A stretch of DNA of 54,039 bases from a virus (lineage: Duplodnaviria > Heunggongvirae > Uroviricota > Caudoviricetes). Below, in pieces: positions 27,636 to 28,305 of the stretch. The translations under genes and the position numbers were made by a program. The stretch lies in the IMG/VR virus record IMGVR_UViG_2541047747_000003. One strand, 5' to 3'. The notes under the pieces were generated by a model that ran no database searches, was not told the DNA's origin, and worked only from the letters and a program-made list of their open reading frames with translations. Position 1 is the stretch's first letter. Each line of letters starts with the position of its first letter.

Positions 27636-27725
27636 ATGATTGCATCAATATTAACGTTTATAGGCGGTATGGCGGCTGGATTCATTCTTTGCATGTTTCT
27701 GGTGGCTATGTCTAAGCAGGATTGA
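27636..27725 (+). CDS. Hydrophobic micropeptide 1 (29 aa)
   Basis: Hand-translated MIASILTFIGGMAAGFILCMFLVAMSKQD; RBS GAGG. Confidence 0.35.
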   Translation: MIASILTFIGGMAAGFILCMFLVAMSKQD

Positions 27726-27727
27726 TT

Positions 27728-27835
27728 ATGGATGATTACATTATCGCCGGATTAATCGGTATCTCTGTGTTTCTGGTGGGTTCTATTATAGTTGCGCTGA
27801 TAAACGTATATATCAAGTATTTGGTGGAGGGGTAA
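27728..27835 (+). CDS. Hydrophobic micropeptide 2 (35 aa)
   Basis: Hand-translated MDDYIIAGLIGISVFLVGSIIVALINVYIKYLVEG. Confidence 0.35.
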   Translation: MDDYIIAGLIGISVFLVGSIIVALINVYIKYLVEG

Positions 27836-27836
27836 G

Positions 27837-27911
27837 ATGATTGACCCGCTCATTATCCTTTCTGCCTGCGTCGCTGTATGGCTGGCGATCATGATATTCA
27901 TTGAAAGCTGA
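27837..27911 (+). CDS. Hydrophobic micropeptide 3 (24 aa)
   Basis: Hand-translated MIDPLIILSACVAVWLAIMIFIES; RBS GGTGGAGGGG; start 1 nt after the previous stop. Confidence 0.35.
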   Translation: MIDPLIILSACVAVWLAIMIFIES

Positions 27912-27922
27912 AGGTATCCACA

Positions 27923-28003
27923 ATGAACGCATACGAAATGCTATTGCTGGTGGCTGTAGTTGTAGTCATTGCCGTAGATGTTTATCGGGAGTTTAAAAGA
28001 TGA
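27923..28003 (+). CDS. Hydrophobic micropeptide 4 (26 aa)
   Basis: Hand-translated MNAYEMLLLVAVVVVIAVDVYREFKR; RBS AAGGTA. Confidence 0.35.
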   Translation: MNAYEMLLLVAVVVVIAVDVYREFKR

Positions 28004-28068
28004 AATGGCTTGATTTCTTTTTTCTGATCGTTGCGATTGTTCTTACCATGACCGCGTTAACTCAATAG
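28000..28068 (+). CDS. Hydrophobic micropeptide 5 (22 aa)
   Basis: Hand-translated MKWLDFFFLIVAIVLTMTALTQ; ATGA overlap with the previous stop. Confidence 0.3.
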   Translation: MKWLDFFFLIVAIVLTMTALTQ

Positions 28069-28076
28069 GTGAACGC

Positions 28077-28151
28077 ATGAATGCTATTGATATTATGTTG
28101 ATCGTGTGTACCGTTGCGTTAATTATTATTGGGGTGATTATCAACGTCTGA
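28077..28151 (+). CDS. Hydrophobic micropeptide 6 (24 aa)
   Basis: Hand-translated MNAIDIMLIVCTVALIIIGVIINV; RBS AGGTGA. Confidence 0.35.
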   Translation: MNAIDIMLIVCTVALIIIGVIINV

Positions 28152-28221
28152 CAGTGACTTCTTAATTATGGCTATATGCACGTTGTTAGTCGTTATCGTT
28201 TTCTTCGCATAAAGGTAAACA

Positions 28222-28305
28222 ATGAAAGAGCTATTCGACTGGTTGGAAGTATTAACATACTGCGCAAGTTTTGTGGCTTGCGTATATATCATCAATAAAT
28301 ATTAA
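28222..28305 (+). CDS. Hydrophobic micropeptide 7 (27 aa)
   Basis: Hand-translated MKELFDWLEVLTYCASFVACVYIINKY; RBS AAGGTAAACA. Confidence 0.35.
   Translation: MKELFDWLEVLTYCASFVACVYIINKY

Follow-up and report, generated by a model that had tools for sequence, protein, structure and literature searches.

A colinear mosaic of genes for single-helix hydrophobic micropeptides between the lysis and terminase genes of mEpimmI coliphages

Small single-helix membrane proteins are an accepted yet poorly charted class, and the phage examples are mostly single genes. The Ff phages have two adjacent and translationally coupled genes for pVII and pIX, hydrophobic peptides of ~32 amino acids (aa) that lack a signal sequence and insert into the inner membrane with the acidic N-terminus facing outward. 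The Pf3 coat protein is likewise cited for inner-membrane insertion (PMC12648545). Bacterial small inner-membrane proteins covered by the same review include KdpF (29 aa), AcrZ (49 aa), MgtS (31 aa) and YohP (27 aa); peptides shorter than ~45–50 aa cannot be targeted co-translationally and require post-translational targeting (PMC12648545). Here we describe a dense array of genes for peptides of this size in IMG/VR virus record IMGVR_UViG_2541047747_000003, a sequence of 54,039 nucleotides (nt) that we refer to as the window and that is the entire genome of a temperate coliphage in the mEpimmI (mEp021) group. Positions 27636–28305 are a real multigene array with seven intact micropeptide genes and one start-mutated copy. 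Across the mEpimmI (mEp021-group) coliphages, ~20 micropeptide types hold fixed slots between two conserved anchor genes.

The array consists of seven ATG-initiated open reading frames (ORFs) of 22–35 aa on the plus strand, each essentially one hydrophobic helix. We label them A, B, C, F, H, I and M, following peptide families defined in relatives. Micropeptide A (29 aa, MIASILTFIGGMAAGFILCMFLVAMSKQD) is encoded at 27636–27725 behind a GAGG Shine-Dalgarno (SD) motif, and is followed by B (35 aa, MDDYIIAGLIGISVFLVGSIIVALINVYIKYLVEG; 27728–27835) and by C (24 aa, MIDPLIILSACVAVWLAIMIFIES; 27837–27911), which has a GGAGG motif. Next are F (26 aa, MNAYEMLLLVAVVVVIAVDVYREFKR; 27923–28003), H (22 aa, MKWLDFFFLIVAIVLTMTALTQ; 28000–28068) and I (24 aa, MNAIDIMLIVCTVALIIIGVIINV; 28077–28151), and the last is M (27 aa, MKELFDWLEVLTYCASFVACVYIINKY; 28222–28305). 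The junction of B and C reads TAA-G-ATG, and the stop of F overlaps the start of H in an ATGA. From a gene for a 180-aa protein directly upstream through the terminase small subunit gene (terS) downstream, the genes form a tightly packed co-directional run, with intergenic distances of −4 to +11 nt except for 70 nt between I and M, which house the remnant of a further member, J.

An earlier sequence-only reading of this DNA had listed the same seven same-strand ORFs of 22–35 aa, and all are present at exactly the coordinates it gave. It had described each peptide as dominated by one transmembrane-like helix, which is backed by the hydrophobicity profiles, and had seen a recognizable ribosome-binding site for most starts; an SD-like match was in fact found for all seven. 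The abutting and overlapping stop-start signals from which it suggested translational linkage are real, as the B/C and F/H junctions show. It correctly located the array between the lysis cassette and the terminase but overlooked the intervening 180-aa gene, and its count of seven holds for the intact members but leaves out the decayed J. It also did not recognize that gene cassettes form a colinear mosaic across the phage family, of which this array is a single example.

The number of such ORFs is far from what chance or base composition would provide. Hydrophobic ATG-initiated ORFs of at least 20 aa number seven on the plus strand and zero on the minus strand of the region. In 2000 dinucleotide-preserving shuffles the mean was 1.06 (standard deviation 0.89) and the maximum five, so that seven was never reached; other 680-bp segments across the 54-kb sequence hold at most three each. 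The region is rich in T (36%, vs 25.5% for the window), and this T is strongly phased: it makes up 52% of codon position 2, compared with 28% and 30% of positions 1 and 3, and the phase tracks the frame of each individual ORF. All seven starts are preceded, at a distance of 3–11 nt, by an SD-like match of 4 nt or more, vs 20% of all ATGs in the window. In relatives, an AGGTGA motif precedes I in 36 of 36 copies, SD motifs occur ahead of nearly all family starts, and the ATGA overlaps are conserved.

Comparison among relatives provides a strong indication that the ORFs are translated. A terS probe recovered 47 IMG/VR loci, to which three GenBank phages were added; both anchor genes (the 180-aa gene and terS) are present at 50 loci, the window included, and these we analyzed. 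The distance between the anchors ranges from 318 to 1154 bp, and at every locus the space is filled by 3–13 hydrophobic mini-ORFs, so the search of related genomes that the earlier reading had proposed found the array throughout. The ratio of nonsynonymous to synonymous polymorphism (pN/pS) was calculated for 15 peptide families by comparing all distinct DNA alleles of each. In-frame values are 0.08–0.40 in all 15, with variation concentrated at third positions; shifted frames give ~0.5–4.7, and both shifted frames exceed the in-frame value in every family. For the families represented by intact genes in the window the ratio is lowest in M (0.08) and H (0.12), intermediate in B and F (0.25 each), C (0.30) and A (0.31), and highest in I (0.37). 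When all six frames are pooled over the 50 loci, the annotated frame has a pN/pS of 0.23 and zero stops, whereas four of the others have values of 0.82–1.87 and 4–12 stops per 100 codons. One antisense frame, whose third positions coincide with those of the annotated frame, has a pooled pN/pS of 0.34 but is interrupted by stops. On these comparisons each unit is predicted to be a protein-coding gene maintained by purifying selection and initiated either from a ribosome-binding site of its own or at a coupled start, and we are all but certain that the ORFs are coding genes.

The content of the array varies greatly, but only within a fixed order. There are 39 architectures among the 50 loci, and all fit a single succession of ~20 slots (A a O/Q B N d C D P E F G H I J K L M x), of which the window has A B C F H I (J) M x. 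Slot M is occupied at all 50 loci, F at 48, C at 47, H at 46 and B at 44. Types I and J occur at 37 loci, always together, followed by a and D (32 each), E (22), K (16), G (14), A (12) and L (11); other types are rarer. We regard M as near-core, F, C, H and B as near-core to a lesser degree, and the remaining types as probably dispensable. M alone is found at every locus. It is under the tightest constraint and has the lowest hydrophobicity, and most relatives have it immediately in front of terS; it may have a distinct and possibly core role.

The spacers indicate how the mosaic is assembled. Gene F is preceded by a C-type, D-type or E-type spacer, matching whichever gene is its neighbor. Thus, a 5' spacer belongs to the preceding cassette, and gains and losses are of whole genes, with breakpoints at the start codon. 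At one locus (L039, 2230–2412), an in-frame fusion of B and C has produced one ORF of 60 aa that contains two hydrophobic segments, which shows that neighboring micropeptide genes can merge into a two-helix protein. Variable presence among syntenic relatives, one of the hallmarks of morons, is evident from the 39 architectures. The other hallmark, a promoter and terminator of their own, was not found: 27600–28470 contains no plus-strand promoter-like site and no convincing terminator. At five distant loci with an Sf6-like terS (~38–44% identity) there is no hydrophobic mini-ORF upstream. These array-free loci rule out that the array is a general companion of this type of terminase and make it specific to the mEpimmI lineage.

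Between I and M lies the remnant of family J (28144–28212, plus strand), the decay of which was read from an alignment with MagusPhagus and loci L014 and L006. In relatives, J is a 22-aa ORF of ancestral form (MSDSDFLIIAISSLLVVIVFFA) whose first 8 nt overlap the 3' end of I. In the window its ATG reads ACG, owing to an AAT>AAC substitution that leaves the residue encoded by ORF I unchanged. In addition, an ATA>ATG change at J codon 9 creates a new in-frame ATG at 28168 and leaves a 14-aa ORF (MAICTLLVVIVFFA), the product of which is too short to span a bilayer. The same double change (lost ATG plus internal ATG) is present at L006, L013, L026 and L031. This could represent a start-codon shift or the early pseudogenization of one cassette.

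The best 18-residue segments of the peptides have Eisenberg mean hydrophobicities of 0.64–0.94 and hydrophobic moments of 0.07–0.18, values of the transmembrane class and not of amphipathic helices. A, B, C, F, H and I have mean hydrophobicities of 0.74–0.94, and M is borderline at 0.64; uninterrupted hydrophobic cores of the window peptides are 13–26 residues long. Thirteen of 20 families have a head of 4–5 residues ending in Asp or Glu (MNAYE, MNAID, MKWLD, MRESD and others), behind which are ~15–17 hydrophobic residues and then 0–8 polar ones. Most families, and every peptide of the window, have a net charge between 0 and −2 (the extremes are −3 and +2), and C-terminal tails are occasionally basic. 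From these properties, the peptides are probably inserted in the membrane.

Several of the peptide types are paralogous and have a common M-x-x-x-[D/E] head. Composition-controlled alignment scores give z values of 7.2 for D2-F, 5.9 for G-K, 5.1 for H-K, 4.3 for G-H and 4.0 for F-I, and 15 of the 190 family pairs are above z 3. A search for DNA repeats within the array found just short repeats at chance level, so the paralogy is visible at the protein level only. It implies that some of the array genes were duplicated and then diverged.

When the peptides were compared with the profiles of Pfam, PHROGs, NCBIfam and PADLOC, nothing rose above sub-threshold noise. The nearest profile is DUF3789 (PF12664), for which family a, a sister of A, scores 14.3 bits against a gathering threshold of 22 bits and so falls outside the family. 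UniRef labels the exact peptide A as DUF3789, yet our own Pfam scans of A gave no match. A tblastn search of 50,697 phage records with the peptides joined end to end identified only mEpimmI phages and, for A, ~90 rV5-like myoviruses. The homologue in these myoviruses (~80% identity at the nucleotide and 65% at the amino acid level) is annotated as a 29-aa coding sequence (CDS). There it stands alone: the small genes around it are unrelated to it and mostly do not encode membrane proteins, and lysis and terminase genes are far away; copies lie, for example, at 2006–2095 of L004 and 1506–1595 of L005. That A occurs in temperate siphoviruses of the mEpimmI group as well as in virulent myoviruses of the rV5 type implies that this one gene of 90 nt was passed on horizontally. 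Eleven records labeled as Campylobacter phages (MG0656xx, ~135–141 kb) carry the same rV5-like sequence, and their host label may be wrong.

The array is nearly invisible in protein databases. A HMMER search with peptide B against 1.84 billion representative proteins found two close relatives only. In a collection of 15 billion proteins, the only peptides represented are those with 29 aa or more; C, F, H, I and M (five of the seven) are missing, which fits the lower limit of ~30 codons used by gene callers. In RefSeq/PGAP annotation the array is a 768-bp unannotated gap, and the mEp021 record annotates nothing there. Records based on PHANOTATE call some members, a few of these in the wrong frame. 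In MagusPhagus (L001, 3318–3521) and mEp010 (L002, 3225–3428) there is a CDS for a 67-aa "hypothetical protein" (MKAEGIHHEY...), which has an upstream start out of frame with D, overlaps D and absorbs E as its C-terminal half. Such CDSs look like mis-annotations. A literature search found no description of an array of this kind.

The order of genes on the plus strand is holin, lysozyme, spanin, 180-aa gene, array, terS, terL and portal. A terminator-like hairpin (25568–25586) is just 5' of the gene for a class II holin (25611–25811; PF16080, E 1.8e-14), which has a single start codon and no lambda-style dual-start antiholin. The lysozyme (endolysin; 25813–26304) has a Gly/Ala-rich N-terminal segment that we take to be of the signal-anchor-release (SAR) type, presumably as in R of phage 21. 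The gene for an Rz-like spanin follows at 26292–26762. No plus-strand promoter-like site was identified in 25513–29200, and no convincing terminator between the holin-proximal hairpin and terS. The placement and packing of the array, without an internal promoter-like site, argue for co-expression with the late genes, and it would be transcribed within a late operon that begins upstream of the holin.

The peptides would then enter the inner membrane as single-span helices, presumably by post-translational insertion because they are below ~45–50 aa. Their acidic heads and occasional basic tails suggest an N-out/C-in orientation, with the Pf3 coat protein as the model. Each would act alone, either by packing onto a membrane protein of the host or the phage or by perturbing the bilayer, much as bacterial small membrane proteins do, and would be an accessory fitness factor, not a stoichiometric part of lysis or packaging. 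In nearly all 50 loci the holin and endolysin are 90–100% identical, regardless of array size (3–13 genes), and this indicates that the peptides are accessory and not core lysis parts. Overall, we moderately favor accessory modulation of host or phage membrane proteins by late-expressed, single-span inner-membrane micropeptides.

Several points weigh against this proposal. The decay of J here and a relative with just three genes show that most members are individually dispensable. A length of 22–24 aa is at the lower limit for spanning a bilayer, and M, which is only moderately hydrophobic, may not be a transmembrane peptide. The pooled pN/pS (0.23 in frame) derives from non-independent sequences, without a formal phylogenetic test. 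The case for translation, membrane placement and effect across the array is built on sequence computation, and action on membrane proteins is argued by analogy. The mEpimmI group was described in 2025 in a paper that analyzed virion proteins only and makes no mention of small hydrophobic ORFs or of the array region (PMC11893012).

A more specific version, which we consider possible but doubtful, is that the phage carries a combinatorial set of ligands in the form of transmembrane helices, each of the ~20 types having evolved to dock onto a different host inner-membrane protein. Targets might include a DNA-entry transporter, a membrane-anchored defense effector, and a quality-control or insertase component. 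If so, gain and loss of whole genes would tune host range or counter-defense, and a class of genes in phage-host conflict would be hidden from annotation, with most members under the 30-codon limit.

The sequence-only reading had raised three possible functions, namely lysis timing, superinfection exclusion and toxicity, none of which has become established. As modulators of the lysis clock, the peptides would advance or delay holin triggering in the manner of an antiholin or "releasin", either by binding to the class II holin or SAR-type endolysin or by dissipating the proton-motive force. The position of the array on the strand of the lysis cassette and ~870 nt 3' of it, the lack of a dual-start antiholin and the SAR-like segment of the endolysin are compatible with this, and there is a precedent in BSPM4 ORF52, a 64-aa protein with a single transmembrane segment that binds a holin and tunes lysis (PMC11657625). 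However, array content was tried as a correlate of the holin/endolysin allele and shows no co-variation with it across the 50 loci, the lysis genes being near-invariant beside 3–13 array genes. In addition, a 330-bp ORF-free gap and the unrelated 180-aa gene separate the two, A has a non-lysis context in rV5-like phages, where its genomic and temporal setting is altogether different, and no peptide matches a holin or antiholin profile in PHROG or Pfam. The invariance of the lysis genes, the separation and the rV5-like context of A are a better fit for independently acting, host-directed accessory peptides, and we consider a lysis function unlikely. Less likely again are membrane-damaging small toxins or superinfection-exclusion factors that depolarize or block the inner membrane, leading to host shut-off or to exclusion of incoming DNA. 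Tandem multi-copy organization is known for the ldr and ibs loci, and rapid turnover of presence and absence is typical of conflict genes. The peptides also resemble IbsC, TisB, DinQ and other type I toxins in size and hydrophobicity (see the review PMC12648545). Against this, there is no sign of an antisense RNA: three minus-strand promoter-like hits are no more than are found in shuffles, and Rfam gave no match. The ribosome-binding sites look strong, coupled and free of sequestration; instead of being cationic, the peptides range from neutral to acidic; no toxin, defense or exclusion profile is matched (NCBIfam, Pfam, PADLOC); and placement in a late operon fits poorly with exclusion in the lysogen. 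Overall, the locus lends no support to a type I toxin-like organization.

The other explanations are far less probable. The layout of tandem, leaderless genes for 20–35-aa peptides, each with its own ribosome-binding site, is reminiscent of the textbook psm-alpha operon and of multi-peptide leaderless bacteriocins, a resemblance that favors release of the peptides at lysis as amphipathic agents, similar to phenol-soluble modulins or leaderless bacteriocins, acting on other cells. Such a role is highly improbable given hydrophobic moments that mark transmembrane and not amphipathic segments, net charges of 0 to −2 that are not cationic, and the absence of a transporter or immunity gene nearby. 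Scarcely any weight can be given to the idea that the region is non-coding and the ORFs are a by-product of a T-rich untranslated leader, a packaging site or a recombination hot spot. The region is T-rich, it adjoins an Sf6-type terS so that a pac site could be close, and C, F, H, I and M are absent from the 15-billion-protein collection. However, T-rich composition alone, which the sequence-only reading had named as grounds for abandoning its claim, was tested and rejected by the shuffle, strand, codon-phase and pN/pS results. Frame-specific purifying selection in all 15 families, zero in-frame stops, conserved SD motifs and ATGA overlaps, and insertions and deletions that are whole genes also contradict a non-coding region, and the limit of gene callers explains the database absence. 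Equally negligible is the suggestion that the units are fragments of one decayed multi-pass membrane protein gene, or a single protein made via frameshifting or read-through. Consecutive helices on the same strand and the in-frame B-C fusion at L039 are in line with it, but each unit has its own ATG, SD and stop across the 50 loci and is gained and lost independently. Moreover, selection is maintained inside each short frame, frame changes between units are irregular, and shifted frames contain stops.

The surrounding region (27000–29000) matches MagusPhagus, mEp010, mEp554, mEp044, mEp013, mEp021 and mEp515 at 87–93% identity, and the same stretch is found at 87–93% identity in prophages of 35 of 5426 complete E. 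coli genomes. Between the spanin and 180-aa genes, ~330 bp (26763–27090) contain no convincing ORF; the mEp021 GenBank record has a predicted terminator in the homologous stretch, which may be a terminator, a packaging-related site or a regulatory RNA. An Rfam scan of 25400–29000, which covers both this gap and the array, gave no match.

The upstream anchor (27091–27633, plus strand) is a homologue of mEp021 gp49 and a member of phrog_1365, a family of unknown function (E 5e-30). Its stop is 2 nt before the start of A, and the gene is kept in all 49 related loci that cover its position. The 180-aa protein has an HEAAH motif within a predicted helix, corresponding to an invariant HExxH (H79, E80, H83), and a disordered Lys/Glu-rich tail; the AlphaFold model has a mean pLDDT (confidence score) of 71.9. 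There was no Pfam match, no PDB sequence match and no match in a search of genome contigs, and Foldseek comparison of the model with the PDB found nothing better than E 0.05. One source labels a 63%-identical homologue as a "PolyVal metallopeptidase". This label is an unverified lead, which our sequence and structure searches did not back. We found no link between the HExxH protein and the array.

The downstream anchor encodes an Sf6-like terminase small subunit (28472–28957, plus strand; PF20901, E 1.3e-37; phrog_1482). Between M and terS is cassette x (28315–28461, plus strand), a 48-aa acidic, non-hydrophobic ORF present at six of the 50 loci. It shares the variable site of the array, yet is not a membrane peptide. 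It is annotated as a "hypothetical protein" in E. coli, and of all genes between the 180-aa gene and terS it is the sole one that RefSeq annotates.

Also present upstream of the holin is a run of co-directional ORFs of ~60–107 aa (22246–25505). Several of these resemble paralogues of one small acidic protein with a Cys...Gly-x-Tyr...Asp-x-x-Gly-x-x-Trp pattern (e.g., 22708–22932, 22929–23144, 23154–23393, 23386–23613 and 24745–24996), and the run may be a second tandem small-gene family in the same phage. A 64-aa protein with two hydrophobic segments (25132–25326) is encoded just 5' of the hairpin that precedes the holin; it belongs to phrog_10061, a family of unknown function.

What sets this locus apart is that a whole phage lineage, widespread among E. 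coli of the human gut, maintains a dense stretch of an operon composed solely of genes for small single-helix membrane proteins. The 39 architectures in 50 genomes amount to rich natural variation in presence and absence, and the paralogous types show how micropeptide genes duplicate and diversify. Phages of the mEp021 group grow on E. coli K-12, and the array is thus a compact and genetically tractable system for the action of transmembrane micropeptides in infection. The locus is also a concrete case of coding sequence lost through length cut-offs, as RefSeq annotates no member.

Comparison with described systems places the array among several groups of small proteins. It has in common with bacterial small inner-membrane proteins the size class, a single hydrophobic helix with minimal tails, the annotation gap and post-translational targeting, as well as packing against a larger membrane protein, which for the array is only proposed. 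Those proteins, however, are encoded by single chromosomal genes that are individually regulated and have known partners, whereas the array combines up to 13 unrelated or paralogous peptides in one phage operon; profile searches detected no sequence relationship between the two. Type I toxins (IbsC, 19 aa; TisB, 29 aa; Ldr, 35 aa; DinQ, 27 aa) are also single hydrophobic helices of 19–35 aa and can occur as tandem loci. They are paired with a cognate antisense or small RNA antitoxin and their translation is tightly repressed; the array, in contrast, has strong coupled ribosome-binding sites, no sign of antisense RNA and no match to a toxin family. DUF3789, a 32-position model of tiny proteins, is connected to the array through the UniRef label on A and the below-threshold score of family a; we found no paper that mentions the family. 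The psm-alpha genes of S. aureus (~21 aa) and leaderless bacteriocins are comparable as tandem genes for peptides of ~20–44 aa, each with its own ribosome-binding site, but their products are amphipathic, mostly cationic, exported and from Gram-positive bacteria, whereas the array peptides are uniformly hydrophobic and neutral to acidic.

Among phage proteins, pVII and pIX of Ff and the Pf3 coat protein are virion components of filamentous phages, whereas the array belongs to a tailed siphovirus and its content varies between relatives. The lysis-timing modulators BSPM4 ORF52, T4 RI and P1 LydB are, like the array peptides, small phage membrane proteins outside the core holin-endolysin pair. 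Unlike them, these modulators are larger, single-copy and shown to bind holins; the array does not co-vary with the holin, and no profile match was obtained. The array thus falls within the phage small membrane proteins and is not a new kind of system.

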